A stretch of 32,394 nt of DNA from positions 1 to 32,394 of the forward strand of contig RSEE01000223.1 in NCBI GenBank assembly GCA_003971905.1, read 5' to 3'. Position 1 is the first letter of the stretch. Each line of letters begins with the position of its first letter. The stretch comes from Moniliella sp. 'wahieum' (taxonomy: Eukaryota). Below the pieces are notes generated by a model that did no database searches, was not told where the DNA came from, and was given only the letters and a program-made list of their open reading frames with translations. Position numbers and translations under genes: made by a program. This document shows, in pieces, positions 4,602 to 25,518 of the stretch.

Positions 4602-5218
4602 CGTGTCAAGTATGACCGGGGCGTGTATACGTGAATGGAATATTGTGCTGTGCGGCCGATGATCCCTAATCGATAATCGTTGATCATTACAAGATGTGGT
4701 TTTACAAGAAGAAAATCAACATGGGTGGCCAGGCCCAAGGCTTCGCCTGTTGGGTTCTCAAATTCGGTAGAAGCGCGCACTTGATGCAGTTACTATATAC
4801 GACACAGTTTGCCCCCACTTTGCGTGTTGACAATGATGTGCACACGGGGATAGGGATAAGCGTTACAATTGATAAGGTAGGTCTTCCCAAGAGGCCCCCG
4901 TACTCAATCTGTACTACTCAGTGCCAGTGTAATAATTTACGAGGAAGTGCTATCGGATGATATTCTTAGTGCCTTGGCAGCCTTCGCTTGCTTCTGTTGG
5001 GGGGGTAGTGCTAGGCTTCCCCTGCACCCACCCTCAGTGGATCGGTGACGCTCTCGCTTAGCCGGTCGAAAGAGTTCCGCTCGCAGGCCGCACACGCCCT
5101 GCTCGCTCCATCTCCCTTCTCGCCCAAACCCGAAACTACCGTGAATCGTCCTTCACCTAAGGGATTGTACCCCATCAACCTGGGTGAGAGCCCCCTGGCA
5201 GGGCCCAGGGTCGTCGTA

Positions 5219-5907: not shown

Positions 5908-6062
5908 ATGTTGTCACGTGGAGATACCACTTTTTCATTTCTCCGCGCTACCTCCACTAGCTCCACTTCTCCCAATTGAGTTAACATGCATGACATGCAT
6001 AACACGGGCAAGCAGGACGCGGCGGGTGTATTAGCTGGTTATACGCGCAGCACAAAGGCGCC

Positions 6063-6400
6063 CAGAGCGTTTCTTTTTGTCCCAGCCGTACTTCTTGAAT
6101 TCATATCATTGACAGAGCTTAAGGCTGGGACAGGGGGAACGCTACGTCTAAACCGAACCGTTCATCTTGCGGGGGTTACTTGGAAGCGCCACTAAGGTCA
6201 AGGAACCAGGGGATCGCCAGGATATCAGGACCCTCCGGCTCTCGCCATCCGGTCCCGTACCCTAGGAAGCGCGTGTGGACACGGAGGAACGTGGTTGACA
6301 TCCGAGCGAGGAACCATTTCCACTGAGACTTAGTAGCCAACTCCTTCCAATGCGCAAACAACTTGCCCGCCGTCTTGGTGCCGTAGTATCCTCGCGTACT
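6063..6400 (+). mobile_element. Unclassified repeat family, copy A: degenerate R-type end (6063-6087) abutting an L-type end (6107-6175), followed by a coding remnant
   Basis: CATTGACAGAGCTTAAGGCTGGGACAGGGGGAACGCTACGTCTAAACCGAACCGTT at 6107 recurs at 10444-10512, 20071-20126, 21155-21202 and from 25864. Segment 6176-6400 is an inverted homolog of about 20560-20940. Confidence 0.8.
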
Positions 6401-6469: not shown

Positions 6470-7192
6470 CCATCGATCATCGATCGACTCCGTCTCGTCC
6501 ACCTCTTAGATACAGGATGAATATTGCCGTGTGCCACAAGAGCCACAGCAGGCCACAGCCTGTGGAGTGGTACGTTCATTCCAGCTTGAAGCTTGAAGCT
6601 TGAAGCTTTTATTGAACGTTGAAGACGTTAAAGAGCTTAAAAAGCTTTTGAAGATCTAATTCGGCGCCACCTTGAGTACTCAACTGCTGAGTCTGAGTGC
6701 ATCAGATCTCACTGAGATTTCAGAGGCAGTGATGCGTGATGGTTGTGGATATTGTGAATCATTCTCTCTCGCTTTCTCATTAAAATTTCGAATCCTCAAA
6801 AATAAGTGCAGCACACAGTATACATACGTGGACTCTTCGACTCAGACAGAGTACTCAGTACTCGGACTGTGGCAAGCACAGTGCCCCTGCGTAAGCGCCA
6901 CTTGTGGCGCCTGGGGTCATCGGTCACCGGTCACTTATCGATTATCGATTATCGATGATCTCGATGATCGATGATCTCTGAGCGCGAGCCTCACAGGCCT
7001 CAGGTCCTCAGATTGGGTGTCGGCCACTTTTGTGAAGATTGTGCCTCCAGCCCCCTCCGGCCTTAGGCCTAAGGGCCTCAGGAATAACTCGGTACACAAA
7101 TGCTCTCCGGTACTCACGATATGTACTTTCGTCACTTTCAGGGTTTGGCATGGTTTGGGGGTTTAACGTTTAAGCTTCATTAAGCGCTCAAG
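6470..7192. repeat. Cluster 1 of TNA + palindromic 4-mer heptamer expansions
   Basis: AGCT(TGAAGCT)3 at 6583, GGTCACCGGTCA at about 6921, (TTATCGA)3 at about 6935, GGCCTTAGGCCTAAGG at about 7059. Confidence 0.85.
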
Positions 7193-7301
7193 TGTATATA
7201 AAGGTCGAGGTAACGTTCGCGCGTTCATGCTGGCATTTTCTCATTTTCTCTACCTCTCCCCCCACATCACGACCAACACTATCGCCATCACCTTTGCGCA
7301 T

Positions 7302-8570
7302 ATGGCTGACAACCCACCTACCCATATGATGCAGCATGCTGCGCCCGGAGTGAGGGTGCATTTGCCCCCATCTGTTCCAACTTCGCTATTGGAACAGGAC
7401 TTGGTGCGGGGTATGTACCTAGGTGCTGCTCTTGCTTTTCTGCTGTGGGAGTACGCCATTACCCCTTCTCCATTTCTCATCCTATCCTCCTTCATTTTTA
7501 CGCCTGCACCTCTGCTGACACATAACCTCCTCTGGAAGCATACTTATCACATTTCCAGCTGAGATCCGCATGCACAGGAAGCGGGGTTTCAAATGGCTTG
7601 TCACTCCAGCTTTTCTTATCGCGCGCTACACAAGCCCAATTTGTATCGGACTCTACATTCATGCCCTTCGGAAACCTTCTTGGACAACCCAAGAGTGTTA
7701 CCACGTGGGCGTGCGTCCGTCTTTCTTGGCAGCATTATTACCTCCTCCGCCTCCTTCATTTTTTCCGTACGAACTTGGGCCATGTGGCACTGCAATCGCT
7801 ATATCATGATAGTCGTTGCGCTCCTTTGGTTGGCCCAATTTATGATCAATATTATCCTCAACAACTGGTTTCGCCCGTATGCGCTTAACCTGGTGTGTGT
7901 GTCTACGCGATGCCAGGACACGAAATTCCGTGGGCATACTTTATCTGCAACATTGTCTTCGACACACTCATCACTTCGCTTGCCTTTGCCTCTTTCTTGT
8001 TTGACGCACACGGGCGGCGGGTTAATATTACCAGGCAAACTGTGTTGACCAAGGTCGTGCAGCAACGTCTTATGTCTGACGGTTTGATCTACTTTTTCTG
8101 TGCCCTCTCCATCAACTTGCTCAACGCGCTCTTTTTCAGCAAGCGCTGGACTTTTTCCAACATTAATGGGTCCATCGCCAATGCTTTTACTGCCATTTGT
8201 GCATATCGTCTCGTGCTGCTGAAGCTGGGTGGTGGCCTGGACTTGAAAGGTATTGCGGGATACCCCTCCCTCTCAAGCGGTAGTGGGAAACAAGAAGGCA
8301 CAGCAACGATCCAAATATACTATCACCCAAGCCGTGGTTGATCAAGTCGAGATGGAGAACACATCTGCAATCAAAGAGTGTGAGCGCAGCTCCATAACCC
8401 ATTTTTCGACCCTCCCCTCCCCTCCCAACCGTGTGGGCAACGTCCCCTTCACGGTCGAGACACAGGTGATGCAGATGCACGATCCTTCATCCGTGACCCT
8501 AACCCCGCTCCCCTCTCGTTCACTGCATCAGAGCAAAACAGCAGATGAAGAGGCGAGGGTGGGATTCTGA
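7302..8570 (+). CDS. DUF6533-like multi-pass (7TM-like) membrane protein of basidiomycetes; one intron and several apparent frameshifts
   Basis: Splicing 7451-7538 (GTACGC...CTGAC...AAG) gives LLWDILITFPAEIR. Later segments read RTWAMW, FDTLI, LMSDGLIYFF and RLVLLKL, with hydrophobic helices and a Ser/Pro-rich tail ending at TGA 8568-8570. Confidence 0.7.
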
Positions 8571-8858
8571 GTCCCCTTATTCTCTGTTCAGGATTGCTTC
8601 ATTTTCTTCATGGAGGGAAAGGCACTGGCATAGATTATTATTCTTTATCATCACCACGGACCATCAGATGCTCTTCAAATATTTGGTTGTCTCTCCCTCT
8701 TGTGTATGTGAAGGCAGCCCGTACATGATATATGATATATAGCCAGCTTGGCCAACCCACCAACCATCTGGAAAGTCATTATGTCCTTATAGCTCAAATG
8801 CTCAGCATTTGATCTCTGTCTCCTCACCGGCTTTTGTTCTTTCCAATGGCCAAACATC

Positions 8859-8982
8859 AATCATAGCTAATCGAAAATGCTGGTTACAAGGTTCGGGATA
8901 GATATGTGAGTACTACGTACAAAATTCAAGGTGGGCAAGGCCCACAAGATTGTGCGCAAGAAATTTCGATTAGCTATTGATT
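8859..8982. mobile_element. Putative MITE of about 120 bp
   Basis: Inverted repeat AATCA-TAGCTAATCGAAA (8859-8876) / TTTCGATTAGCTATTGATT (8964-8982) with a non-coding interior. TSD is ambiguous, possibly TA. Confidence 0.45.
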
Positions 8983-9413
8983 AGGCTCCCTTCATCTCAT
9001 TAATCATTGGATGTGAAAGAAATTGACCAGAGCTTTTGACGTACGGGATGGCACGGACTTCTGGTCAAGGTTCTTTAGGGCCCTCCTCAAGCTCCACAGG
9101 TCAATAGGTGTGTGGTCCGATGTTTCCTCGTTTTTCTGTGTGTTCCTTGTTTCGCAGCCTCTGGCCCGAAATAGGGGTTGGCTTCTTTTAACATCCCTGT
9201 GCAGAGGTGCCGTTGGGTGGCCTATACCAATACCCCGCACGTATAACGGCGCGCTGAAGCGTTTTGATGTCTTCCAAACATGTTAGGTCAGGATACTCTA
9301 ACCGCCGGATTCTCTCGACAATCCGTTAATCGGTAATGGATGGATGTGTTAATGGATAAACTCGATAACCCCAACACCTGTTTTGCGGCGAGAAACAATA
9401 TCCGTCAAAAATT

Positions 9414-10110
9414 CATCGAGCATCGAGCATCGACGCCATCGACCGCAGCGACTATGCATCGACGTATCATGCATCATGCAGAAAAGCGTTCAATGCGTGT
9501 CAGCGCTCAGCCTGAGCGCTGCTCAGCATGAGCTCAGCGCTCCACGCTCCACTGCATCAACGTCTAAACGTGTGCGTCTAACGTACCTAACCCTAAACCC
9601 TAAGCACAACAGCCAATTCTTTCACACACCTGTGCCTAGCAGTATGTACCTTCCTATGCACATGTATTTTGGATGTTGGCCCGAGATAGAAGGTAGATAT
9701 TTGCCATCGGGCGGATCTCAAACATTGTGGCGCCCGCTCGTCACGCGTCACGCGTCAGCGCGTCACACATCATGCATCATGCATCATTAATCATTCGTCC
9801 CTTGGAGCTTCAAATCATATATTTTCCAGGGATATTTTCCGGGTATATAAAGAGCAAAAACGCCCGGACGGCAGGATGTGTGCGCAAGGCGTAATTGTGG
9901 CGTTACGCGGTACTAGAGAAGTTACTAGTTACTGTGCCCCGTCGAAACTCCGCCACCTGCTCCGCACCGCGCAGTTCGAAAGAGAGGTCGTTGTCACATG
10001 TCACGCGTCACGCGTCACGAGCGAAGACGGGGCCGTACGGCGAGCCTGACTGGCCGGTGAGGCCCTGAGGGGCCTGAGGGCCTGAGGCCTGACTGTCGGA
10101 GTACTGAGTA
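9414..10110. repeat. Cluster 2 of TNA + palindromic 4-mer heptamer expansions
   Basis: CATCATGCATCATGCATCATTAATCATT 9768-9795, TGTCACATGTCACGCGTCACGCGTCACG 9992-10019, AGTTACTAGTTACT at about 9920, CCTGAGGCCTGA at about 10081. Confidence 0.88.
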
Positions 10111-10443
10111 TAATACGCGCTGCGCGCTCACTTTCCCACACGAGGATCAATCTGCGTCTCTTCACTTCCTGTCTTTGTCAATGCATTAGCGTTTCCACCT
10201 TCATCAATCCACACAGTATAGGCAACCCCTCACTTCTATAGTATAGCTGTCTCCTCTGGTCTTTGTCTTCTTTTGTCATCATGTCACCTCAGCTTTACCG
10301 GTCATGCAAGGGCCAATGGCGCCAGGGGCGTTTGATGGACTGTGGGAATGGTTGTGAATTAAACATGGGGAACTCAGGGACGAAGAAGGACAGAAATGTG
10401 CGTTCTTCGGAACTATATACTATGGATACGCCGATATTATACC

Positions 10444-10512
10444 CCCCCGCAAGATGAACGGTTAGGTTTAGACGTAGCGTTCCCCCTGTCCCAGCCTTAA
10501 GCTCTGTCAATG
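10444..10512 (-). mobile_element. Unclassified repeat family, copy B (L-type end)
   Basis: Its reverse complement matches 6107-6175 at 68 of 69 positions. Confidence 0.85.
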
Positions 10513-11051
10513 AAATGGACGTGATCTAGGGTACAACCTTTGCCTGAGAAAGTTCTTGTATCGCCTCCTTTTTTCTGAGCGGACGGGTTGGGAAATTGTC
10601 GTTTAAGCACCAACAGCGCATCTCGGAGACCACCACAGACCTATTACAGCCCGGATTTCGTACTGGCTCACCATAGCTACCGTAGCCACCATTCCCGTCC
10701 ACTGTCCCTCCGCCAACCGCTGTGTGAGGTCCGGTTTGAATTATCACCCATGTAAAGTCCTTCTGCGCTGCATCTGCAGAACGCGGTTGTGTTACAACTA
10801 CAACCTCGTTGTTTTATATATGTTGGTGGAATTGTGCTTTTCCTCGACATCTGACGAGTGGGGCAGAGTCAATATGATCGTCCCTTTTTTGCTTCGTTTA
10901 AGACGAAGACACCTTATCTTCTTCAACGGTATCACAACCTCATGTTTAGTATTTCTTTATCGGATTGAGACCTTTCATGCGGTATTGTTTTGTCGCGGGG
11001 AGGGGGGAGCGCAACAGATATACACAGCAGAAGATGTGAGATGGGGGGGCT

Positions 11052-13887
11052 TCAGCGTGGATCAAGGTTAATAGAGGCTCGCGCCCCCATAATGTCAACA
11101 AGACGCTTTACTCCATACCACCATGCACTGCGACCCGTGCGATGTTTCATGTCGGCCTCCTTGGCCATGTCCCGGGCTAGGGTCATCTCGATTGATGAAC
11201 CACGGAAGGTGATGATAGCTGCTGATGTTGGGTCGTATCCCTCATTACTCTGATGGGATTGACGAGTATGGAAAATCACGTCTCCCATGCCCGTGTCCGA
11301 ATCTTCTTCCTGAATGTCCCGTACATTCCTCATCGAAGGGGTTGACCACTCTTCGTATTGCAGAAGCTCAGGGCGAGCCTTCCCTTCGAGCCACTGGCAA
11401 CTGCGAATAGCCAACCGAGTAGCACGACACCGGTCCAAAGGAGAAGGATTGCCCCCTTGCAAGGTATGGCCCAATGTCGCAGAACGAGCATCAAAGTGTT
11501 GCTGCCCCTCTTGTTTGAGAATAGAAGTCAGCAAGTCGGTTGTGTAAACACTACTTGATTCCTCGTTGCGGATGATCAGACGACCTTCTGACTTGCCCGG
11601 TTGGTCGAGACTGTACCGTTTTTTGAGCCACTCAACGTCTTTGTAGAGCTGGGAGATCGATAAGCCCATTTCAGGGATGTAAGTGAGGGCAGCATCTGTC
11701 GCCAATCCGCCCAAAACGGCCAAGAAGCCACAGTTTCCTCCTTGCGTCTCCACAACAAAACGCGATTTCGACTTGCCCTGGCAGACTGTTTAATGGCATC
11801 GCATGCGTCGACTAGAGCGTTGAGGGCCGTATCGGACCCAATGGAAAAGTCGTTCATGGGCACATTGTTACTCAACGTAGCAGGGATGGCAACAAGAGGG
11901 ATTCGGAATGCAGGATACTGAGTCCGGGCGTCGTCCATGAGCTTGACAGCATGGAACGACTCAAATCCGCCAATCAAAATTAACCCATCAAGGTCATGAT
12001 ACTGAATCTTAGCCGCCACCGCTCCAAAGTCAATGGAAGGCAGCACACGGTTTGTCCCTATTTCGGAGCCACCCCGAATACCCCAATTGTCAACACGCAA
12101 CCAGTCCACTTCCTGAACATTGTCCTCCAGTAATCCAGGAAAGCTGTTGGAAATCAAAAGGGGTGTGTGCCCCCTGCAAAGGAGATACCGCACTATGGCC
12201 CGAGTGGCCGCGTTCATCCCCCCCGCGGGTGCCCCAATATGCATGACGCCGACTCGGATGCGGTTCTCTGGTTCGACTGATCTTCAGGGTTGATTTGGGA
12301 AACGAATTTCCAAGCCTTGAGGTCCTCAGAAAATGCATCCCCCCGTGCACGTAAAGCATCGCCAAACCGTTTGTTGGCATAGCCACTGCCACCGCTTGGT
12401 CTGTTCAATGGCATCCTTGAGCGGTACACGAATTACTTTGCTCTCCGTAACCAATCACATACGAGGGGGTGTCCGGCGTAGATTGAAGCAATGTTTTGAC
12501 CGCTTCCACGGCTTGAAGGTGGAAAGGACAGGTCATTTGCATCCGGTTCCCCCCGCGCTGAGTGTGGCCGAGAGTGGTGACCCGTGTATCCAACCCAAGC
12601 TGCTCTGAAAGAACTTAGGCCACGTCGGCAGACTTGATTGGGTTGAGGTTTTTAGATGCCCCTTCTGCGACAATGACAATGGTCTTGCGTTTCCTGCCTT
12701 GCGGTTTGCGTCTGCTTCTCTAGAACGCGGCAATCTCCTGTCACCCACCCTTTCTCTGCCTCCTCCGACCCTTCTTCGGCTTGAAAATCATTGCACAGCG
12801 GAGGTTGTTCCGGGATGAAGATGTAGTCAGCGCGCAGAAGCGATTGGCACACTGCAATGCGATCCAGCCACAGTGTGCCCCATAACCTCGACAACAAAGG
12901 CGCGTGAGTGGGAGGCAGCAGTGGATGAAATGGAGTCGACGGCCTCGCATTGCACGCGCCAAGGCGGTAGGGGAGAGCAGCCAATGGTCATGTCAGTTGT
13001 GGCTAGATCATTGTCGATTGATCCCACTAGGCCCACAATACAAGATCTTGAACTTGTCATACTGAAGCTGGGTGATTTTTCCTTCGGAAAAGAGGGTACT
13101 GATATGATCCGGCCATTCTTTGCGTAGCATATCTGCCCCGGTCAGCTTCCATCGCCCCCACGACGGCAAGGCAGTCGATGCCATTGATAATCAAGTTGAG
13201 GGCAGCTTTCTGTCTACCTTCAAGTTCTCGGAACTCCTGACATCGTGCCGTACCAATCAACGTTCCTCCCTGAAGCACCACAGAAACGTAACATGTGCGT
13301 TAGGAACACTTGTGTGATGAAGTCAAGACAATGAATACAGAGAGGGGTGAAATGCGTACCTGCTCGGACCAGCCCCGAACGTCGTCCCACCCAACGCGGA
13401 TAATGTAGCGTCCCTTCAGTCCAGTATCCGACGCTCCACCTACACCTTCACGTAGGAGCTCACCGTAGCCATAAGTCGGAACAAAGCGCTGATGGCGACT
13501 GTACGGTTTCTCCCAAGGATAGCGGTACCCCGTACCAATTGAGATGCCGGGGATCTGGTCCACATTCGCCTTGGGTCCGAGTGCCGGGCTCGCCGCGGTC
13601 GAAACGGCGGGGCTGGCGAGAGGGCTGACAGCGCGGCTACAGGGCTCGGCATTGGCATTTCCATAAACTAATCCCGAGAGGCCCTCCCGGATAACATACG
13701 CTTCGCACCCCTTGTAGATTGCAAACTTGACCACAGCCCGCACTGCCGCGTTCATCCCGGCTGCATCCCCGCCCGAAGTCATTACTGCAACACGGGTTTT
13801 GCGGCGCTGCTGTCCTGTCGAGCCGCTTGTTTGCGTCGCCGCTGAGTGCGAGACCGAAGTGGAGTAAGCGCGTGCGTGCAAAGCCAT
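11052..13887 (-). CDS. PFK: ATP-dependent 6-phosphofructokinase (eukaryotic two-domain type); one intron and multiple apparent frameshifts
   Basis: Motifs [98 protein letters not shown] and [15 protein letters not shown]. Intron 13270-13359 (GTACGC...CTAAC...CAG). Confidence 0.93.
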
Positions 13888-15075
13888 GATGCGGTAGCGA
13901 CAAACGATTCTAACGACAGAGATGGTGGTGCGAACGAATTAACTCTGACGGAGGCACATATTCCTAGTATATATATAAGGCGCACGAGCCACGAGCCACG
14001 CGCCGACGTGTGCCCCTGCCGCGGGTATGCCAGTTGTCAGTACTAGGCGACAAACACAATGCCAGTGCCGGGTGCGCGCCAGAAAAACGCCAAGGCGCAC
14101 GGTGCTGCGCCAAGGAGAAGGAGGAAATTGCGCCCCCTGGGCGGGCAGCTGTGGAGGAGAGCGGTTATACAATTAGTACCGCTGCGTAGTGTGGTCCCAC
14201 AACGATCGAATAGTCTGCGAAAAATACAATTAAAAGGGCAGAGTGCCGTATGTATTACCGCGCGCCAGGAGGTTATTCCAGTTATATATTGTGCCCTAGC
14301 TACGCGTTCCATTACCCATTACCCCCGCGTTCAAGTCGCCAGGGGACCAACGGGGGGTCGAGAGCTTCGAGAACGCCGTCATGCGTCACAGCAAATATTA
14401 AGACAGTGGGGCCTCGAGCGAGAGCCTGTGTCTAACATGTACCACGTCTAACACGAAAATCTGTCTCTTTCATTTCAAGTGGCAAAAACTTTTATAGACG
14501 AGGAACAGTAGAGCATTATATACTGAGGGAAAACTGACTTCTTTGTGTTGGGGGTGCACTGCCCGGGGAAGAGGGTGATGCGGGGAGTTCGGATTCGGTT
14601 GCTCTACACTCTACTGATGTACTGATATATGATAGAGGTACTCTTGGACGCGGCACATACACTCCACGTTATTGTATTTGGCGGATAGCACCCCCCCCCC
14701 CCCTTTACTCTCCCCGCATCATGTGAGTATATATATGGCGGCTAAATTAGTACTATAGTGGATGGTGGATTGCGCCTGTGCTTCTCACTCATCATTTTCC
14801 ATATACACTTTTGAAAGATGGGGACGAATATGCTGAAAAAGAATGATATGTTCTCGACATTGTTCGTGTGAGACCGAGGTCAGAAGAGACAACAGAGACT
14901 TTATAGGCTTCTAAAAGAGCCCAGAACTTTTGCTACATATTTGATGGACACTCCCTCGGCCAACGATGAACGTCAAGGTACTATATACACAGCGGATCAA
15001 CGAAATAGATTTAAAATATCAGCGGATGTCCGGAGGCTGACATCGGCGACGTGTTTGCATGGTTTTGAGGGAAAT

Positions 15076-15150
15076 GATGTCAGCGACGTCGCAAAAGAGG
15101 TCGTTGATGTCAGCGACGGCGCAAAAGAGGTCGTTGTTGATGTCAACGAT
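15076..15150. repeat. Subterminal tandem repeat, unit about 30 bp
   Basis: GATGTCAGCGACG(T/G)CGCAAAAGAGGTCGTT twice plus a partial copy. Confidence 0.75.
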
Positions 15151-15674
15151 GTGCAGCGCGGGGGGCCAACTGCTGGCTACATGTGAAACTTTGCATCGTT
15201 TCAAAATCCCACCCGGCCACACCATTTCGTGTCTTCTGCTAGCAAATGCTACCAGAACCACCTATAGTCAACACGCGTCCTTCCTATACGCGCTCACGGT
15301 AGCTGGCCAAGGGCAGGGAATCGATTTGGCATAGTCGCCGCATGGAAGGGTGTGCTCTACGGGGACATACGTATTCAGATGTGTCAGGGGAACATCGGCA
15401 GTTGGTGTGGCCAAGATTTAACGTCAGGTAAACGGAACCTCTCATTTCATGTGGTCCAAAAGGCAGGCCATGCGGGACAGCATTGTGCCCACTGATAAGG
15501 GGTTTGGCTCATCAGCCACCCATCCTGCGCCTAGTTCTGATTGGGCTCCGGGAACGCAGGGACGACTGGTGCAGCCCCGCTGAAGATACGCTTTTGTTGG
15601 TCCTTCACATTACTTTGACCCCGCAAACGAAAGCCATGAAAAGTCTGTTGGGTTCTCCGAGCAAACCGACGAGG

Positions 15675-17645
15675 TCATCGAGAGTCATTCCTCCTGATAA
15701 ATTCATAGTCGGACAGGCGCGTTTGAGAGGTGGGTCTGAAACCGAAATCGGTCAAGCGAGACTGTCTCCAAGAGGTTAGGCTGTCGTATACGCGGACTTG
15801 ACACTTCTTCACCATCTCTTCTTCTTGTTCCATCAGGTGTGTGTGCTCGTGAGCCAACCGTCTGACCCATTCCGCGTTGGCTCCGACAACAGTAAGGTGT
15901 TGTGGATGAGGCCGGAGCTTGGGCCCCACTGGTCCGTGTAGTGTAGGTGTCCTTCATCGCAGTGTTCCGACTCGGCCAGATACTCATTGGACCAGATCAA
16001 TTGTCGGTGGTCACAGAATGACCCTGACCCCGTCGAACGGACCAGCAAAGCGATGAACGACACCAGTTCGACAATGAATACGGGTAACGACAGGTTTTAC
16101 ATTTGCGGACCGGCATGCCCTTCCACTGTTCCTTGAAGCAAAACTCCACCTTTTGCTTAATGAACGCGGTGTTGCGTGTGCGATCTGTCCCAATGTCCGG
16201 GAAGATTGTCATTGGAAGTCTCCGCTCATCAGCTGGCCGCCTGGCAAATAATAAAGGCGATGTGCAGAGCCACGTCGCGTCGCGCCAGAGGCCCAGGGAA
16301 GTACCGATGCGCAGTAGCTCCCGCGATAAAGGCTAGAGATAAAGGTGACGGTGCCAACATACGCGCTTGTGTAGTTAGAGCACAGTCGTCTCCCTTGGCA
16401 ACACATCGCGAGCCGGATGGGGAGGTGGGATTCGCGTTAATCCATCCACCCCATCTTGCGAGTGGAGGTCATCTGAGTTATCACGCATAGTCAATGTGGG
16501 AACGGTGAAAAGACATTATGTTCCCTCTCCAGCGTGGAATGGTTCCAGCGTGGAACGGTGACTAAGGTGGCGACGCAGCGATAATTAATCTCATCAGTGA
16601 CAGGACCAGTTCGGCGAGCTCTCGCCGCATATACTTTTTGGTAATCACAACTGGATGATGTTGATAACGGCAATGAACGGGTTCGTAAAGGGCGCGAACA
16701 TATTGCTAGCAATCGGGCCGTGGTGACGTATTATTGTTTCCGAGAGATCCTCAATACAGAGCCGGAGACTGCAAAGGAGTGCGTCTTATTGTGAGGCATC
16801 AGACTTGTGTGCGCGCCGAGTTGATCGCCTCTCTGGCTTGGATCCGGACTGAGGATCCGCTGTCGCTTCGGGTTCGGTAGGCGGGCCAGCCGACTGTGGG
16901 CAACGCACGTTTCAGCGTTGTCCTCCACCCAAAAGCATCTTCCACATCGCCATTTTGCGTGGGAGACCCAGAGGGCAATCCAGAGAGGGGCTGAAGGTGC
17001 AATTCAGGGGAGGCCACGTCTGGCATATTAATGTCAGATGTGTGCCACAGTAAAGATGGTGGCCAGCGCTTGCCGGTTGGAACCAGCTGGGATCGTGCTT
17101 GCGCGCCGGAGCGCATGGTGCACGAATGATGCCTGCTGCAGTGTCCAGTGTTGCAGCTGGGTTATTGGACGCGACCCGGTGTGCCCGGTGTGATCTTGGT
17201 GACGTCGGGCGTCCCTGTGTCGAAAAGACGAGTACGGGTATCGACGACATATCCGGTGCATATCCAATGGCTGGCAGTGCTGGGAATTCTGGCAGCCGAA
17301 AAGAGTTGAGGCAAGAGTTGGAGGAGCTAGGGCTCCAGTCTCCAGTACCTCGGTGTCGATACATTGCCGGGGTACCAACGGCGAACGTTTGAATGTGCGA
17401 CTCAACTATCATTGTTGGCCCGGCTGCTTCGATCTGTCCAGGACACTACGTAGCCTTATTCGCTCACCATCGAGCGACAGTTGCCTACTGCCGGTCACGG
17501 GCGAAGACGAGCTGGCAAGCCTGACGAAGCCTATGTGCGCCTGTCGCCTTCCTATTCCCATCCACAGGTTGGTCATGGAGTCAGATTCAATCTGGAGACG
17601 ATAGTCGCCCCGTGCCCTTTTACTTTTTAGGTTGCCCGTACCCAA
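15675..17645 (-). pseudogene. Decayed gene of unknown function with a Cys/His-rich C-terminal region
   Basis: Chain of broken minus-strand ORFs (17409-17645, 16912-17412, 16731-16928, 15997-16212, 15833-16063, 15675-15929) including CKTC...FCDH...HCDEGH. Boundaries are approximate. Confidence 0.35.
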
Positions 17646-18399
17646 AACCGTCGCCCTCCCTGGTTTCCCCTGTCCCCCGTTCTTCCTCTATGCTACACAG
17701 CCTTGGCACACTGTGGCAGTCACCTCTTCTGCTATACGCCGAGAAGTCTTTCTTTGTCCCTAGCCCCGCTCGGACCCACCAATCAGCCCAAGTGCGTAAC
17801 CACCGTGAGAGCTAGTCGACCTTAGTATCTCCAATGGATTGTACCCCTTAAGGCCTTAATCCCCCTGGGCGGGCCCTCTGGCAGCGCCCGCGCTTACACT
17901 GCCTGATGCAGAGAATGTTGGGCGCAGCCAGTTCCCTGCAGCAGCAGCGCCTCAGTGCTTCTTCAGTTAGGCCCCTGGCTAGCCAAATCCGGCCAGGGGC
18001 AAAAGACTTGCCTAGTGCGTTGTATGGAACCCCCCGCATGTGAGTGGCGCAATCTGCTCTACCCCCACACTGCAGCCCACACTTGACAAGAGCCAGCCAG
18101 ACCCCCTGGTCCTGCCCCTTTCCACACACACCCCACCACCATCCCTCGCCTCCGTTCCACCAGAGTAAGTGCAACAGCCCATCCAGGCAATGCTCGTGCG
18201 AGCCCCTCTCGCGGACCCAGCAATATCGCCGGTCCAGCTCACACCCGCACCGTCAACAACAAGCTAGGTTGCCAGGCAGCCGAAATGGACGAGCTGTACG
18301 TGGACAAGCCCCCACCCCCCCCCCCCAATCTGGCCTCGCCCCCCCGCCCGCATTCGGACGATCCCTGAAATAGCGGCATGTCACGGTGCAGGCGCGCAG

Positions 18400-19425
18400 G
18401 CAAATGATCCAGAAAAGATGTCGATCAAGATACCACAAGCGACGCACAAGGTCACGCCAGTGCCCCTGGGTAATAATTGTCGAATTCTTTAGCATGTCGG
18501 CCAGACAGCACGTTTTGCTGATGGTGCTCAAGAGTCTACCGCTCTGGGCGCCTCCCCACTAGATCCACCTTCAAGAGGGCCATAGCCAACATCATCCAAG
18601 AGGCGGGCAACGCTCAGCACAAGCTATTTGAATGAGGTGCGTTAACCCAAACCGCTAAACCATCTACTAACAAATAGAACAGCGTCCAGTTGCCAGAGAG
18701 CATGCACTGTATCGATCGAGGCAACGGAAGGCGCATTGTGCGCCTTCCAGGCTGATTTGGTGCGTCATAAGTTTCTAGTCTACTTTCGCAGCCTCTCTCA
18801 CCAAGAGCTCACTGCCGCCAAGCTGGTACGTACTGACCCCGCCTCTTCACGCGTTGCTCTCCTCGCAACATGGCCACAATAACTTACTTCACCCGTTCTC
18901 ACCAAAAGCGCTTCTGTTGCTACCCACCGAACGACATTGACTTCCAGAGGGAAATGAGACGTGTCTTACAACATCACAGCTTCCCTGACCCATCTGCCCT
19001 GTGCACCGTCTTGCTCAACCGGAGTCTGAACAACAGCAACCGCTGCAGCGACATTTTCAGTGCCATCACCGTCTCTTTGTCTGATCATAAGTACGTCGCT
19101 ACCCCGTTCTCGTCCAGCAGGTCATCTGACTTTTTTCACTCATCGCCCCGCAAGCTATCTACTGGGCTGAACGAGTGTATGGGAGAATTTCTAGGGCATT
19201 GCGGACACGCATCTTCGGTAAGGTAAGCCTGAAATTTGTACCGCCTGGCGTGCGACGCGTGTTGAACAACTCACCCACCACCGTCACATCGCAGTAACCC
19301 GGGTGCAAACCGAAGAGGAGTAGGATACATGGGACAACCAAGGCACTGCGGTCAACTTCTTTGACGCAGAGGGCACTGATGGCGAGGACGACGACCGCAC
19401 AGGCGACTCTGAGACTGAGGAGTGA
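18400..19425 (+). pseudogene. Decayed intron-containing gene with an acidic C-terminus, unknown function
   Basis: Intron-like segments 18637-18677, 18826-18908 and 19223-19294 (GTRMG...AG with CTRAC/CTCAC branch sites). The last exon reads ...FDAEGTDGEDDDRTGDSETEE* and internal stops are present. The start is not defined. Confidence 0.4.
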
Positions 19426-19629
19426 TTTAGCGCCTCTACATTCCCGAGAGCTCTCAACGGCGAGCCCCCAAATCCATATTGACCTATCGCAATGAAAAAA
19501 GTACCCTCGAAGACGATTGCACAGCATTCGATGGTACTAGAATGAGTAGTAGTATAAAATGTAATACCGATAGTAACCCAGGAAGAGCGAGCATACGAGG
19601 ATCAGAATCGTCAGATCCGTCGCCCAGGG

Positions 19630-19710
19630 GCACGTCAACGACGTATCTGACGTTCAAGGGGATGACGTCGAGTACGTATCTGACGTTCAAGGGGGTGACG
19701 TCGAGGACGT
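19630..19710. repeat. Tandem repeat, unit about 33 bp
   Basis: ACGTATCTGACGTTCAAGGGG(A/G)TGACGTCGAG twice plus a partial copy. Confidence 0.75.
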
Positions 19711-19796
19711 AACAAACCTGCTGACAGTGACAGGTTTGCACGTCCCCACAGCCAAAACACTCTTCTGACGTTTTTGAAGGTATTTTATACGAGGAG

Positions 19797-19844
19797 ACCA
19801 CCGGGCCTACGGCCCGGTCAGCTGGGGCTTCGCCCCAGCTTGGT
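19797..19844. other. Twin perfect hairpins (rabbit-ear structure)
   Basis: ACCGGGCC-TAC-GGCCCGGT (19800-19818) and AGCTGGGGC-TTC-GCCCCAGCT (19820-19840), flanked by ACC/GGT. Confidence 0.75.
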
Positions 19845-19855
19845 GCTGCGTCGCA

Positions 19856-19963
19856 GCCGCCACCGTAGCCACCGTTCCCCCGTCGCCACCATTGCCACCT
19901 TAGCCACCGTTCCCCCGGTCCCCCTCGCCACCTTAGCCACCGTTCCCCCCTTCGCCACCGTAG
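19856..19963. repeat. GCCACC-based compound minisatellite
   Basis: Repeated GCCACC(G/T)TAGCCACCGTTCCCCC units. A related degenerate stretch occurs at about 10670-10715. Confidence 0.7.
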
Positions 19964-20070
19964 TTATAATATCACCGATACGCGCTGGCTGCGGGTGGCT
20001 GGGAACGTGGCACCGGTCGGCACGTGCCTATGACGTAAAAGATGCACGGCGGATCAATTTTGCATATGTT

Positions 20071-20126
20071 AACGGTTCGGTTTAGACGTAGCGTTCCCCC
20101 TGTCCCAGCCTTAAGCTCTGTCAATG
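20071..20126 (-). mobile_element. Unclassified repeat family, copy C (L-type end)
   Basis: Exact reverse complement of 6107-6162. Confidence 0.85.
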
Positions 20127-20719
20127 GAATGCACACAACATAGAGATCTTGAAACATCTGTGACGTATTTTGCTGATCCGCTGTGTATACACGGTCGACT
20201 ACCATCGCGGTAGGGAGTGCTAGTCAACTCAGCTGGGGCCAGAGAAGGATGGGAGTCTAGGTCCTGAGAGGTGGGTTAGGTCCGGATATAGAAGAAAGCT
20301 GTGCCGACCTGGCTAGTCACTGGTTAGGCAGCATTACACGCTGGAGGATGTACCTTGAGGTCAAGCCTGAGGTGCATTGCATGACAGTGGGAGGCGTGAA
20401 CGGCAGGGGCGGAACGGGACCGACGCTCTGTGCTCCAAGAACCTCATGGAATCGGCATTGATCTCACTGGAATCGGCATTGATCTCACGGGAATCGTCAT
20501 CAACGTTCAAATAAAGTACCAGGGATGCACGCAAGAGCCGTTTTCCCCTCCTGGTTTTGACGACGCGAGAGGATATACTATTACGGCACCAAACAGCCGG
20601 AAAGATGCTTGCGCACTGGAAGGATTTGACTAGTTGACTACTGTGAATCTCGGTGGAAATGGTTCCTCGCTCGGATGTCTACCGCGTTCATCCGTGTCCA
20701 CACGCGCTACCTCGGGTAC

Positions 20720-20840
20720 TGTCACGGGCTGCGGCGGACTCGAGATGGTCCGACCGAAGCTAAGGCCCGCCTGCTCCGCACATGCCCAGTAGAGCGTGTG
20801 CTCTGCAGGCCAACCGAGTGTGTTACCGCAATCCGTGACA
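20720..20840. mobile_element. 121-bp TG...CA insertion (solo LTR or MITE) with 5-bp TSD GGTAC
   Basis: GGTAC|TGTCACGGGCTGCGG...CCGCAATCCGTGACA|GGTAC. The paralog at about 6255-6265 has a single GGTAC (empty site). Confidence 0.88.
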
Positions 20841-20964
20841 GGTACGGGACCAGATGGCGAGCACCAGAGGGTCCTGATATCCTGGCGATCCCCCTGGTTC
20901 CCTAGCCGTAGTGGCGCTACCAAGTAACTCACGCAAGATGAATAACCGGTTACGGGTCCGTTTA

Positions 20965-21154
20965 TGTCATAGTTTGTGGCTGATGTCGCTCCCATTTTCC
21001 AAATTCTTCGTCTCGAGCGTCTCGCTCCTTCCCTGTTTCTTCCACTTCGCACCATGTCCTCTGTTCTTGCTTCTTCCCCACGAACGATTGCTACACCCCT
21101 TGGCCTAGTCCGATTCTGGTCTCCCTCGCTGTAGCTGTAGCCCCGACTGTGACA
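20965..21154. mobile_element. 190-bp TG...CA insertion (solo LTR or MITE) with 5-bp TSD GTTTA
   Basis: GTTTA|TGTCATAGT...ACTGTGACA|GTTTA. Copies A, B and C have a single GTTTA at this position. Confidence 0.85.
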
Positions 21155-21242
21155 GTTTAGGCGTATAGCGTTTCCCTGTCCCAGCCTTAAGTTCTGTCAA
21201 TGATAGGGATCAAATAAGGTTTTGGATGTCAGCGAGATCTCG

Positions 21243-21710
21243 ATCAGGCATCATGCATCAGGCCTCAGGCCTCAGGCTGAGGGCTGAGGCCTGAGCTCAG
21301 GGCCTCAGGGGCGCCATGCCGATCGGTGAAGTCTCAGAGCTTAAAAGGGATTCGTAGGGTGACCGGTGAACGTTGAACTTCAACGTTGAAGCTGAAGGGC
21401 GACTGTCCTTGTGTGCTACCCAGGCCTTGAATTCGGCCATGATGCATGATGCACGATGCAGGATGCATGACCTGTGACCGGTGACCCTTTGTCACGCGTC
21501 AAGCTTCAAGTTCAAGCTTCACATGCACTTCACATGTCATGCATGTCACAGGGCTTCAGGCCGCCCTCATGCGTCACGCGTCACGCGTCAGGCCTCAGAC
21601 TGGAAAACGTTCAACGTTCAACGTTACTTCTTCCGGCGCGGCATCAAGGCATCCGTAACGCGTAACTGGTAACTCAGTGCATCAGTGACTCAGTTGAGTA
21701 CTAAGTGAGT
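21243..21710. repeat. Cluster 3 of TNA + palindromic 4-mer heptamer expansions (densest)
   Basis: CATCATGCATCAGGCCTCAGGCCTCAGG 21249-21276, GGTGACCGGTGAACGTTGAAC 21358-21378, CGTCACGCGTCACGCGTCAGGCCTCA at about 21572, AACGTTCAACGTTCAACGTT at about 21606. Confidence 0.9.
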
Positions 21711-21902
21711 CGATAGGTTGCGGCAGAAGCGAGGGCAAAGAGTGCGACAGCGGCGTAGCAACGGCATAAAATTTAAAAACCACACTGTCTTCACAGTGAT
21801 CTGGTCTCAGTTTCTCCGCCCCTTGTGTCTCTCGCTGCAGCTCCTCCACAGTTTCCACCAACCCCCACAGGCCCCGCCGTGCTTCGCCTGTTGGGGGGTA
21901 CA

Positions 21903-21956
21903 GAGAGCGTTTCTTTGTCCCAGCCTTAAAGCTCTGTCACATGTCACATGTCAATG
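21903..21956 (-). mobile_element. Unclassified repeat family, copy E (R-type end) carrying a 14-bp heptamer expansion
   Basis: AGAGCGTTTCTTTGTCCCAGCCTTAAAGCTCTGTCA[CATGTCA]2ATG. It shares AGAGCGTTTCTTT..GTCCCAGCC with 6064-6087 and is preceded by an imperfect hairpin at 21861-21899. Confidence 0.75.
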
Positions 21957-22334
21957 GTACAGTTACAGTATATAGAGATTTTGGCTTTTGCACGTGGTTG
22001 CGTGTGAGTACGCAGCGGCACCTTCCTTCAGGATTATTTTTCCACATTGACCTTGCGGCAACACGCAACTTTTCAGAAAGCACACTCTCACTGCACCTCA
22101 TCTGATGATGCACCGAGATGGTACAGTTGAACTTCCCCAAAAGGAATCGATTTCCCATGGTATATCGATGGTAGAAAGGTTGACTAGGCGTGGGGCCCCT
22201 TCTTTTTGTGCCGAAAGGCTGTTCAGGCGCGGTGGGGTTATTTCCCCCCCCCGCTATGCAAGGAACAGATCCATGACGCTGTATCGATGACAAGTTGATC
22301 AACAAGCGTGGGGGGAAGGAATATATATTAGTTG

Positions 22335-23425
22335 ACGATGATCGATGATCAATGATCAATGATTAATGGTCGATAATATATATAGTTAGCCGATAGCGCG
22401 TCCATAGCGGCGGCGTCTGGTTACCGGTTATATCGGTTATCACTGATGAAAGTACTAAAAGAGGTACTTCTTCCTAGGGCTATTTGTTAGTTTTGCTCTA
22501 GTGGTATAGTGATGATGAACATACTGCCAGGGATGTCAGCATGTCACAGGCTCATGTGCTGAGGCGGTGCTGAGGCGGTGCTGAGGCGTGCGGAGGCACT
22601 GAGACCAGAGGCAGAGGCAGGCAATAGGGAGGCCTAGTCACAAATTTACCTATACTGTTATTACTCTTATATACTGCTTGTTTCTTGGCTGTGGGTCTCC
22701 CAGGTACGTCTCCCTCTATGAATAGGGCCAAGGGGAAAGACCATCTTGTGGAGCTAATACATGTCTGTACTTGTCCTCCATTGGTAGTATTTGTGCTTAG
22801 TCCAATACCAGTACCAAAACGTAGTTCAGCGCACGTTCAACACGTTCAACGTTCAACGTTCAACGTTCAACGAACGTTCATCGATCATCGATCATCAGCG
22901 GCGTTCAGTGTCTTCAAGCTTGAAGCTTGAAGCTCACACGCGTTGAGACACGTTGACGGTTGAAGTTCAACGTTCAGATCTCAGATCTCAGAGATCTCAG
23001 ATCCATCAGGCGTCAGATTCAAATCTCACAGGCCCCAGGCTCATCCTGAGTATCTAGCCCACTCTCTGAGCCCACTTGCCACTGTCATCGACGTCATCGA
23101 TCATCGTCCACGGTTCATGCGTTCACTGCAACAATGGGGGGAGAGAACGGTTCGATATATCGTTGCAGGTCCGACTGGAGCCCCGCGGGGGTGTAGGAAC
23201 GGTGACGAAGTCCTGTTTCTCCTGCTAGTACTAACTATTCGACAGATGGGAGGCGAAAAGGAGGGGAATCGGAGCACTTACGCCGGTTTTTTGATGCGCA
23301 GTACAGACAGGGCCCAAAATGTGGTCTGAGATCTGAGGTCTAAGAAGATCAAAACCTCTTCACAAGCTCATGAGGCCTATTAAGGTCCAAGAAGGCGTAA
23401 GGCCTAAGCTCTTAGGTCCAACAGA
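22335..23425. repeat. Cluster 4 of TNA + palindromic 4-mer heptamer expansions, upstream of the MFS gene
   Basis: (TCAACGT)n at about 22843-22872, TCATCGATCATCGATCATC at about 22878, GTTCAACGTTCAGATCTCAGATCTCAGA 22965-22992, GGTTACCGGTTA at about 22419, TCTGAGATCTGA at about 23325. Confidence 0.88.
22554..22600. repeat. 11-bp tandem repeat
   Basis: (GTGCTGAGGCG)3 plus a degenerate copy. Confidence 0.7.
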
Positions 23426-23640
23426 TCTAGAGTCTCAAACGTTTCAAGTATTATAGGGGTTGTATCTGGCCAGACCGTTCTTGTATTAAAGCAGTGCCCC
23501 TCGTCGTGTTGGAAAGCATCTCACCAACACAGATTGCGACCTCTACTACTTCTACCTTTCACTCTTATCAGCATCTTTTTCCATCTCCATCACATCTTAT
23601 TAACTCTCTCCGTTATCGCGACGGCTCTTATTTGCCTGCA

Positions 23641-25518
23641 ATGGTCCTCAAGAAGCAATCAAACACCCGCGCGGACATCTTTCCTGGTAAGGAACAATAC
23701 ACTACAGCCGACGCTGACCACGAGGCAGCTGCAACATCCGAGGCGGAGACACATACAGCATCTCCCAGTATCGATCATGGTTCTGTAACCCACCTTAACC
23801 AGGATATCCTCAAAGAGGTATCGGAGGGCAAGATCATCCTCGTCGACTGGGATGGGCCTGACGACCCCATGAACCCCATGAACTGGTCGACGAGGAAAAA
23901 ATGGACCAACACCAGTCTCCTGTGCGCCATGTGCCTCTTCATCGGTTTGGCAACCGCCGCCTATGGTTCCGGTGTCTCAAGAATGTGCAAGGAGCTGAAT
24001 GCTGGTACGTCTATGCGCCACTATTTTTTGGGGAACAATGCTAACCATGAGATGGATTACACACAGGAATTGAACTTGGACGTGTGGGTTTTACCGTGTT
24101 CAACGTAGCCTTTGCCCTGGTACGTATTTCACCACTATACCCGCTTTCGCTTTGATGTGGGGAAATCCGTTGCTGATTTTTTTCTCCTTCGTAGGTTCCT
24201 CCTATTCTGGGGCCCGTGTCCGAGTTTGTTGGGGCGCAACCCGTCTACTTGATCTGCTACGCTGGGTTTGTTATTTGGTTCGTGGCTCTCTTTGAGGCGC
24301 AAAATATTTGGACAATTGTTATTGGCCGCTTCTTTTCGGGTTGTTTTGGAGCAGCCGGTGTGACGATCATTCCGGGAACACTCGCTTCAATCTGGCGTCC
24401 CAACGAGATCGGGCTACCTGTCGCGCTCTTCACCCTTGTCGCCGTGTTGGGCACAGCTGCTTCGCCTCTATATGCTGGATACATTGATGCGCGCCACAAT
24501 CTGGGCTGGCGCGCCATCGAGTGGATTCAAATGGCCATCAATGGCACCGCACTGATTCTAGAGTGCATCTTCCTGCGTGAGCCCCGTGGCAGTGCTCTCC
24601 TTTCGCGCCGAGCCAAGAAGCTGCGCAAGGAGACAGGCGATAACCGTTATCGCTCTCGAGATGAATTGGAAACGCCAAGTTTGAAGGAACTTCTCAAGGT
24701 CTCTACGACTCGTGCGGCGGTAATGATTGTGAAGGAACCAGTTGTCCTCTTCTTCTCCCTCTGGTTGTCATACATGTGGAGTTTGATCTTTGCCCTCTTC
24801 AGTGCCATTCCAATTGCCTTCTCCACAAAGCGTGGCTGGGGTGAAGGAAACACCGGTCTAGCTTACATTGGTCCAATCATTGGCACCTTCATTGGCTGGG
24901 TGTTCCTTTTCCACGACTCTTACCTCTACCAGAAATCTGCCGACGCACACGGTGGGCATGCCATACCCGAGGTGCGCCTGTACTACGGCGCCGCAGGGGG
25001 CATTGTATCCACTATTGGCATGTTCATTTTCCTTTACGGCCCCCTACACGTGGGTGCATTGGATCGCCCCCGAAATCGGCCTCGCTGTACTTCTGATCGG
25101 AATTGTGTGGGTTTTCCAATCGGTGCAGGCATATCTGACTGATGCGTACGGGGAGTCGAGTGCCTCAGCCATTGGTGCTCAAGGCTTCATTCGTAACCTA
25201 ATGGCCGCAAGCTTCCCCTTGTTTACCACCCAGATGTTCAACAACATGGGCTTTCAGTACGCTGGTCTACTGCTCAGTCTTCTGATCGCTATTGCCATCC
25301 CCCTTCCTTTCATCTTGATCTGGAAGGGCGCGTCCATCCGTGCTCGCTCGCCATACGCTGCCGTCCAGACCGAGGCCACGTTGGAAGGCCCAGTTAGTGG
25401 CACTGGACGTGCAGAGATCGATCGCCAGGATGCAAAGGGGGCCGAATCTCCAGCTGCCACTGACATCGAAAGCCATCCCACACAGGAGAAGGTGGCCGAA
25501 TCACCCATTCAGCCTTAG
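23641..25518 (+). CDS. MFS transporter, DHA1 (drug:H+ antiporter 1, Tpo/Flr-like) family; two introns and one apparent frameshift
   Basis: Motifs VDWDGPDDPMNPMNWSTRKKW, GPVSEFVG, IGRFFSG, LGWRAIEW, LRKETG, KEPVV, PEVRL, YLTDAY and FPLFTTQMF. Introns 24005-24066 and 24120-24194. Frame switch near 25040. Confidence 0.9.

Follow-up and report, generated by a model that had tools for sequence, protein, structure and literature searches.

What kind of process fills non-coding DNA with heptamer repeats whose units differ from place to place and nevertheless seem to share one grammar? The question is raised by a contig of Moniliella sp. 'wahieum' (RSEE01000223.1; the whole 32,394-nt stretch is called the window here), mainly by its positions 6470-23425, where an earlier note had described a T-N-A triplet (TNA) alternating with a palindromic 4-mer and had attributed the repeats to repeated insertion and excision. 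The pattern is real, strongly non-random and rule-based. In the reading that we favour, which we consider somewhat likelier to hold than to fail, the repeat units are scars, the insertion-and-excision record of an element with a 7-bp TNA-centred target whose excision hairpins the flanking DNA. The hairpin chemistry, the 7-bp stagger and the very existence of the element are what we infer from these products.

To quantify the grammar, every TNA followed by four bases and a second TNA with the identical central base was counted over the whole window. Among the 97 cases, 64 spacers are palindromic and 33 are not. In 500 dinucleotide-preserving shuffles palindromic spacers had a mean of 1.37 (sd 1.14, maximum 6) and non-palindromic ones a mean of 22.9, which confirms the alternation of TNA and palindrome described in the earlier note. 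Divided by core, the palindromic and non-palindromic counts are 37 and 11 for TCA, 17 and 10 for TGA, 6 and 4 for TTA, and 4 and 8 for TAA. When all 64 trimers were counted in the same way, each of the other 60 gave at most five palindromic spacers, arising from other phases of the same arrays, and the excess is limited to TNA cores. Fourteen of the 16 palindromic 4-mers are in use. The 13 listed previously are for the most part among them, with the exception of GTAC; this 4-mer and ATAT are missing from exact same-N pairs, and GTAC occurs only in one decayed pair and one inverted pair. The central base is copied directly, with 64 palindromic spacers in same-N pairs against seven in complementary-N pairs (C/G, G/C, A/T, T/A), from which it follows that the core is duplicated directly and that only about 2 nt are inverted.

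The 7-nt period stands out as well when no grammar is imposed. At distance 7, 326 repeats of 5-mers were counted where about 34 would be expected, with 51-124 at distances 5, 6 and 8-11 (81 at distance 8), partly coding repeats. Tandem Repeats Finder returned 70 rows, 29 of them with period 7; the consensus is a TNA plus a 4-base palindrome in 20 of these, is one substitution off in three more, and is of another kind in six (ACGCAAC, CATCGAG, CGCTCCA, AACCCTA, CACGAGC and CCATTAC). As an outside control, metagenome loci were seeded with five TCAs at period 7, giving at least 125 stretches, and 124 loci (369 kb) were analysed. Among the matches listed, TSA-4-TSA spacers were palindromic in 35 cases and non-palindromic in 1246, compared with 54 and 21 in the window, and none of the 124 loci shows the grammar convincingly. 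Heptamer repeats do not, as a class, share the grammar.

The 64 spacers join into 45 chains, 32 with two TNAs, seven with three and six with four. Forty chains (59 spacers) lie inside 6470-23425, the remaining five being at 2927, 3317, 4667, 25970 and 26031. If a chain is written ab-TNA-...-TNA-xy, the rule taken from the earlier note is that the first palindrome should be b'a'ab and the last xyy'x'. The first palindrome is as predicted in 23 chains and the last in 28; both sides fit in 13 chains, the left only in 10, the right only in 15 and neither in seven. At least one side fits in 38 of the 45 chains, against about 12% by chance, and the rule therefore stands: the grammar depends on the flanks. 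Two-TNA chains that obey it number 25, with a one-sided fit in 19.

Thirteen chains carry at least three TNAs. Six of them are uniform; the other seven are mixed, and in each of these the palindromes are of exactly two types, arranged as two contiguous blocks. The type on the left derives from the left flank in six, the one on the right from the right flank in six, and both hold in five; each of the two misses is one substitution off. This order is accounted for if all events start from one ab-TNA-xy site and each uses the current flanks. The four mixed chains on which the earlier note had relied are present at 9768-9795, 9992-10019, 21358-21378 and 22965-22992. Counted from core to core, the first of them reads CA.TCA.TG/CA.TCA.TG/CA.TCA.TT/AA.TCA.TT (9770-9793), its left palindrome coming from flank CA and its right one from flank TT; the second reads TG.TCA.CA/TG.TCA.CG/CG.TCA.CG/CG.TCA.CG (9994-10017); the third, GG.TGA.CC/GG.TGA.AC/GT.TGA.AC (21360-21376), is followed by a 19-nt odd palindrome at 21369-21387; and the fourth (22967-22990) has ACGT and then two GATC units. 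The others are CA.TCA.TG/CA.TCA.GG/CC.TCA.GG/CC.TCA.GG (21251-21274), TG.TCA.CG/CG.TCA.AG/CT.TCA.AG (21492-21508; left flank off the rule by one substitution, T for C) and CG.TCA.CG/CG.TCA.CG/CG.TCA.GG/CC.TCA.GA (21574-21597; right flank off by one substitution). Once chains are collapsed to their presumed original sites, little preference beyond T-N-A is left: the centre is C or G in 36 of 45 (the background ratio being about 2.3 to 1), and complementary bases are weakly favoured at offsets 2 and 4.

A direct comparison of DNA with and without the units is provided by an approximately 70-nt dispersed repeat (core TGTCCCAGCCTTAAGCTCTGTCAATGA), present in at least six copies in both orientations and often near scar clusters (6091-6175, 10444-10520, 20071-20138, 21147-21218, 21893-21975 and 25853-25940; weaker copies at 6055-6110 and 26205-26270). 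It has neither clear ends nor duplications, and it matched no Rfam family or tRNA. Five copies read GCTC-TG-TCA-AT-G, three of them on the plus strand (starts at 10462, 20076 and 21152) and two on the minus strand (starts at 6152 and 25910). Aligned with them, the copy at 21893-21975 reads TG-TCA-CATG-TCA-CATG-TCA-AT, which is 14 nt longer by two CATGTCA units (chain TG.TCA.CA/TG.TCA.CA/TG.TCA.AT, 21937-21953), and CATG is the palindrome predicted from its left flank TG. The units are insertions into pre-existing DNA, with rule-predicted sequence. A self-BLAST of the window for further indels of 7n between paralogous copies gave no second case; the copies at 6096 and 25853 differ by a 14-nt gap, but one that the grammar does not describe.

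Two of these copies, 6102-6175 and 10444-10517, form a 74-nt inverted pair with 97% identity, 4.3 kb apart. They were considered as the ends of one element, but their flanks do not match and we read them as two copies of the dispersed repeat. Continuing from the dispersed repeat, segments 6161-6400 and 20560-20942 (inverted) are paralogous with 81-88% identity, and may thus belong to a longer repeated unit or reflect a segmental duplication. An isolated TCA.ACGT.TCA at 20500-20509, with neither flank fitting the rule, recurs in diverged form in the paralogous segment at 6613, which makes this scar older than that duplication.

The favoured reading, as the simplest scheme to give both kinds of product and no others, may be spelled out as follows. 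A cut-and-paste DNA element would cut its target ab-TNA-xy with a 7-bp stagger centred on TNA, and insertion would duplicate 7 bp to give abTNAxy-element-abTNAxy. On excision both flanking ends would be sealed as perfect hairpins, as RAG, Transib, hAT and MULE enzymes do, and host nucleases would nick each hairpin about 2 nt from its tip; nicking at 3 nt would give the same product, because T and A pair. The opened hairpins would present 4-nt palindromic 3' overhangs, xyy'x' at the left end and b'a'ab at the right end, to be overlaid in register with only one kept. The predicted product is ab-TNA-xyy'x'-TNA-xy or ab-TNA-b'a'ab-TNA-xy, always 14 nt long, a gain of 7. Both of the new 7-mers would again be targets, and repeated local hops could build the chains. 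The split of one-sided chains, 10 left and 15 right in raw plus-strand counts, fits the idea that the overhang kept may come from either end. The copied core N and the small number of plain duplications are likewise as the scheme predicts. Flank-hairpin excision with P-nucleotides would leave just this grammar and this flank rule, and simple slippage, discussed below, is excluded; for this reason the scar reading seems to us the best available.

Product classes bear on the size of the target, which the earlier note had given as a 7-bp nnTNAnn site or a 5-bp TnAnn duplication. The former is favoured; the latter is disfavoured by the lack of a +5 class (TNAxyTNAxy 0, abTNAabTNA 3, about 1.5 expected) and by the position of TNA at the symmetry centre of the 7-mer and not of a 5-mer. 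Nor are other classes enriched: +3 (TNATNA) has 34 members where 24.8 are expected (sd 5), and +9 has one against 0.36. For the predicted +11 product, with both P tracts kept, there are two cases, at 7177 and 22826, neither of which obeys the flank rule. Long inverted junctions, expected from hairpins opened far from the tip, are found in the clusters at 9501-9521 (CAGCGCTCAG.C.CTGAGCGCTG, arm 10), 21369-21387 (AACGTTGAA.C.TTCAACGTT, arm 9), 7061-7074 (CCTTAGG/CCTAAGG, arm 7) and 21290-21301 (CCTGAG/CTCAGG). Odd palindromes with arms of at least 9 number four against 0.1 expected, one of the four (22912-22932) being an ordinary AGCT array. Three other schemes were tried and rejected. If only the 3-bp TNA were duplicated, by way of a TNA-loop hairpin, the spacer would be b'a'y'x', of which there is no case; an hAT-type duplication of 8 bp involving an apex base should give odd palindromes, whereas the spacers are even 4-mers; and after a single hairpin cut with no duplication, TN'A should follow TNA.

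The 33 non-palindromic spacers include 12 that are one substitution from the flank-predicted palindrome, several of them at CpG, in agreement with the earlier remark that a minority of units fit only with one substitution. Three others are plain duplications (xy, then ab) and one fits a 1-nt palindrome. The eye also picks out decayed scars, TCA-GTAC-TCG at 6853-6862 for instance, so that the count of 64 is a lower bound. At 10058-10092, TGA cores are separated by GGCCC, GGGGCC, GGGCC and GGCC (5, 6, 5 and 4 nt), a variable-length variant of the GGCC scar that could reflect differing hairpin opening positions or slippage in G/C runs.

Scars are restricted to non-coding DNA. None of the 64 falls inside the six genes identified with Pfam (about 11.8 kb, introns of the phosphofructokinase gene, PFK, included), and two non-coding blocks contain 57 of them: 23 in 6470-10525 (5.7 per kb) and 34 in 21201-23430 (15.2 per kb). 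They make up about 7% of the two blocks (57 x 7 nt in 6.3 kb). Both sub-clusters of the second block adjoin the starts of the diverging open reading frames (ORFs) on either side. The cluster at 8726-10092, on the other hand, is downstream of PFK, and the link of scars to promoters is accordingly not exclusive.

In the first block, the cluster at 6583-7172 comprises chains at 6587-6603 (AGCT twice), 6613, 6702, 6924, 6935-6951 (TCGA twice), 6965 and 7163, plus the 14-nt inverted junction at 7061-7074. The cluster at 8726-10092 has chains at 8726, 8997, 9467, 9500, 9741-9757, 9770-9793, 9922, 9994-10017 and 10083, and takes in the variable-spacer TGA repeats at 10058-10092. The densest cluster, 21243-21665, lies directly upstream of the minus-strand ORF 20630-21196 and holds chains at 21251-21274, 21285, 21360-21376, 21440, 21475, 21492-21508, 21512, 21530, 21574-21597, 21611 and 21656. 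Further along the same block, at 22339-22430, are the chains 22339 (TCGA, then TCAA units one substitution off) and 22421 (CCGG). The cluster at 22838-23103, situated 400-650 bp upstream of an ORF for an MFS transporter, consists of chains at 22846-22869 (ACGT three times), 22878-22894 (TCGA twice), 22921, 22967-22990 and 23094, and two isolated scars, TGA.GATC.TGA and TAA.GGCC.TAA, follow within 23327-23407. Outside 6470-23425, the three isolated scars at 2927, 3317 and 4667 (2927-4676) all obey the right-flank rule, and those at 25970 and 26031 (25970-26040) are placed between the MFS gene and a gene for a protein O-mannosyltransferase (PMT). An isolated TGA.TATA.TGA at 14623-14632 fits the right-flank rule and could be a chance TATA-rich match.

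Several points weigh against the proposal of an excising element. We know of no described eukaryotic superfamily that combines a 7-bp TNA-centred duplication with flank hairpins, and of no precedent for a scar density of up to 15 per kb. An element with terminal inverted repeats (TIRs) and the 7-bp nnTNAnn target-site duplication that the earlier note had thought worth seeking is absent from the 32-kb window, and so is any occupied site. Nor did a Pfam scan of 83 ORFs of the window (15 + 68) detect a domain of the transposase that it had also suggested seeking. Two TIR structures are present, but they carry other duplications, neither of them TNA-centred and 7 bp long. Moreover, some period-7 arrays lack TNA altogether (CATCGAG at 9414-9433, CGCTCCA, CACGAGC), so at least some growth has taken another route or occurred at relaxed sites. 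Finally, Ac/Ds footprints, as described in PMC5873905, are heterogeneous and centred on a single base, and the scars are far more uniform, even-centred and almost always of 2+2 nt.

As to the missing element, 7-bp nnTNAnn direct repeats in the window with TIRs just inside them gave array artefacts only, a 10-mer TIR seed with any duplication gave nothing, and duplications of 5-9 bp with TIRs yielded only a 121-bp insertion resembling a miniature inverted-repeat transposable element (MITE). A conservative cut-and-paste element would leave one scar per hop without gaining copies, and by this argument a few elements elsewhere or an extinct family could account for the record. Scars alone do not separate a transposon from a domesticated nuclease, and the agent is something that we infer.

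The main rival is an enzyme that works without an element, either an element-free host recombinase or nuclease or one domesticated from a hairpin-forming transposase, which would make repeated 7-bp staggered, hairpinned breaks at nnTNAnn in open promoter DNA and gain 7 nt by the same repair. We regard this as unlikely, if less so than the alternatives that follow. It would suit a window without an element, the very high density of scars and their clustering upstream of ORFs, and products of striking uniformity; besides, the domesticated hAT transposase Kat1 of yeasts is described as making hairpin-capped breaks (PMC4763223). On the other side, a 7-bp direct duplication normally needs strand transfer into a staggered target, and by our reasoning we could not derive the product from one hairpin-forming cut, nor do the 83 ORFs of the window include a candidate gene by Pfam. 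The same two products could also come from a Transib/RAG-like element that duplicates 5 bp (TNAnn) and adds two P-nucleotides on one flank only (5 + 2 = 7), and perfect even-centred palindromes are of the RAG/Transib coding-end hairpin type. Such an element would, however, require hairpin opening to occur invariably at +2 on one side and at the tip on the other, with TNA away from the symmetry centre of the 5-mer, and the +5 and +9 classes that it leads one to expect are absent at the counts given above. The MITE at 20720-20840 may have a 5-bp duplication, but GGTAC is neither TNAnn nor nnTNA. We rank this version below the 7-bp reading, as a quite improbable one.

Could the arrays have grown with no enzymatic break at all? 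Replication slippage, or intramolecular template switching in short quasi-palindromes, might correct ab-TNA-b'a' 7-mers to perfect palindromes that then expand as microsatellites. Arrays of up to 4-5 identical units, the TNA-less period-7 arrays CATCGAG, CGCTCCA and CACGAGC, and neighbouring units with identical substitutions (TCAA, 22346-22360), which suggest some whole-unit copying, are in its favour. Yet slippage copies units unchanged and cannot make an inverted dinucleotide, and it leaves unexplained the specificity for TNA among 64 trimers, the in-phase junction of two flank-derived palindromes in seven of 13 chains with three or more TNAs, and the fit of 25 two-TNA chains to the flank rule, one-sided in 19. 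The spacers of seeded TCA heptamer repeats from other DNA are, furthermore, hardly ever palindromic (35 against 1246 among the matches listed). The earlier note had ruled slippage out, and we concur, as the core of each unit is copied while its dinucleotide is inverted in a flank-dependent and TNA-specific manner; in the broader form that includes template switching, we rate the explanation as very improbable. Selection is a different matter, as lattices of ACGT, CGCG and TGCA cores at 7-bp spacing might be kept as promoter binding sites whatever their origin, and the clusters at 21243-21665 and 22838-23103 do lie upstream of ORFs in a divergent intergenic region. Against this, 14 different palindromes are found with none preferred, the flank dictates the palindrome, one scar lies inside a copy of the dispersed repeat, the cluster at 8726-10092 downstream of PFK is not clearly in a promoter, and many scars are decaying by substitution. 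Arrays that arose by mutation may, for all that, have been co-opted later. Of all the explanations weighed here, selected cis-regulatory arrays appear to us the least probable, and by a wide measure doubtful.

The two TIR structures mentioned above are of interest in their own right. The MITE-like insertion at 20720-20840 (121 bp) has TIRs that begin TGTCACGG and match at 13 of 16 bases; its duplication is GGTAC, or TAC under another parse, and it is absent from the paralogous copy 6161-6400. Judged from its sequence, this insertion is evidence of a different mobile family in the genome. The second structure is delimited by the inverted pair 14984-15007 and 20166-20189, which match at 22 of 24 bases, have the termini CACAG...CTGTG and at most TATA duplicated. 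It contains 30-bp tandem subterminal repeats (15075-15136) and encloses 5.2 kb of ORFs, none with a Pfam or Atlas match, and may be a non-autonomous or novel DNA transposon. Among the loci of the metagenome control, one of 363 nt (L088) has three GGCC spacers, and an unrelated contig of 60% GC (L061) has two inverted blocks 1.7 kb apart, at 1533-1680 and 3384-3530, with GGTGACC/AGTGACT-like heptamer sub-repeats; these blocks resemble transposon subterminal repeats.

Other repeats are scattered over the window. The TNA-less period-7 arrays CATCGAG, CGCTCCA and CACGAGC, exact or near-exact, are at 9414-9433, 9538-9552 and 13983-14004, and the CATCGAG unit is like TCA-TCGA with G for T in every unit, which implies that whole units were copied or that the array grew at a relaxed site. 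A telomere-like heptamer, AACCCTA x2.1, is found internally at 9589-9603 in a scar-rich block. A 9-bp repeat (GCCACCGTA) recurs about 12 times at 19859-19963, with higher-order periods of 35/42 bp, inside a minus-strand ORF, which probably encodes a glycine/tyrosine-rich repeat protein; 10657-10696 is a related stretch. A GC-rich stretch (65%; 2461-2555 and 2000-3000) has a 42-bp tandem repeat and, on both strands, long overlapping ORFs without a Pfam match.

The six genes recognized with Pfam are a Sir2 fragment (3-617), a zinc-type dehydrogenase (about 3640-4601), PFK (split, with exons between 11052 and 13887 on the minus strand), the MFS transporter (about 23431-25518), PMT (27197-29623) and a Sec63/DnaJ protein (29737-31848, minus strand). 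The two nearest proteins to PMT share 81-82% identity with it; the best named matches, at 52-57%, are nearly all from Ustilaginomycotina (Thecaphora, Parajaminaea, Pseudozyma, Sympodiomycopsis, Ustilago and others), followed by other basidiomycetes at 47-54%. These matches place the source among the basidiomycetes, probably near the smuts. A search of metagenome contigs with the PMT protein gave no relative, a homologue search with ORF 7563-8048 was empty, an Atlas search with ORF 16912-17445 gave no lead, and Rfam and tRNA scans of the window found nothing.

If the scars do come from a transposon, they constitute an unusually clean and countable genomic record of single excision events, in which target choice, hairpin opening position and end-joining outcome would be readable in vivo without an experiment. 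What the record suggests is a class of element, defined by a 7-bp TNA-centred duplication and flank hairpins, that is absent from the catalogues checked. Beside genes the scars also give rise to arrays of ACGT, CGCG, TGCA, GATC and similar palindromes, and as they occupy about 7% of the two blocks they may plausibly account for much of the variation in promoter length and motifs in this lineage. For annotation, the arrays should be taken neither as ordinary microsatellites nor as conserved motifs. We may go further, tentatively and with a good deal less confidence than in the scars themselves, and imagine a hairpin-forming transposase lineage without a described counterpart, or a domesticated host enzyme, which has a 7-bp T-N-A-centred target and cycles often through open non-coding DNA. 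It would have written thousands of palindromic heptamer lattices genome-wide and would be a sequence-predictable generator of promoter variation, also without a described fungal counterpart.

How does this compare with known systems? Searches of full-text literature, with subscription-only papers and Repbase outside their reach, gave no description of the TNA-plus-palindrome grammar. Ordinary heptanucleotide microsatellites share the head-to-tail arrays and the 7-bp period, but here the units are tied to their flanks and to the TNA core. PIF/Harbinger and IS5-group elements prefer T-N-A targets, duplicate 3 bp and usually excise precisely; in the window TNATNA is not enriched (34 against 24.8), and the scars add 7 nt. 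P-type excision is not, to our knowledge, known to hairpin its flanks. Galileo, of the P superfamily, and 1360 in Drosophila agree with the scars in the 7-bp length of the duplication, but the palindromic consensus of Galileo is GTAGTAC (PMC2775673), with A-N-T and not T-N-A at its centre; the reconstructed sites here lack the GTA/TAC arms, and the element is animal, not fungal. The palindromic microsatellites of Fusarium mitochondria are, by the account in PMC7218506, a different thing.

The closest likenesses are with enzymes that hairpin their flanks. A RAG-type sealed hairpin opened 2 nt from its apex gives a perfect even palindrome, and V(D)J coding joints and Transib resemble the scars in having even-centred palindromes of about 2 nt per arm, with 38 of 45 chains here matching the inverted flank. 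Transib and RAG transposition duplicate 5 bp, however, a class not seen here, and no RSS-like ends or RAG/Transib gene were found in the window. PMC5499845 documents hairpins of the flanks for hAT, Transib, RAG and MULE enzymes and gives target-site duplications of 8 bp for hAT and 8-10 bp for MULE. The latter, with long TIRs besides, differ from the 7-nt period of the scars, and the window has no long-TIR element with such a duplication. In Candida albicans, budding yeast and plants, Ac/Ds footprints are described as palindromic P-nucleotides from flank hairpins that were opened off-centre and end-joined, the palindromes being centred on the complement of the single base beside the element, with 28 types in 128 events (PMC5873905). 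As far as this account goes, Ac/Ds excision is like that proposed here in that both copies of the target duplication are retained with short inverted flank copies at the joint, and hAT elements are unlike it in that their duplication is 8 bp, whereas period and net gain are 7 here (326 repeats at distance 7 against 81 at distance 8). No superfamily described so far has all of these features, and by analogy the scars would work like RAG/Transib-type coding joints made on a 7-bp duplication.

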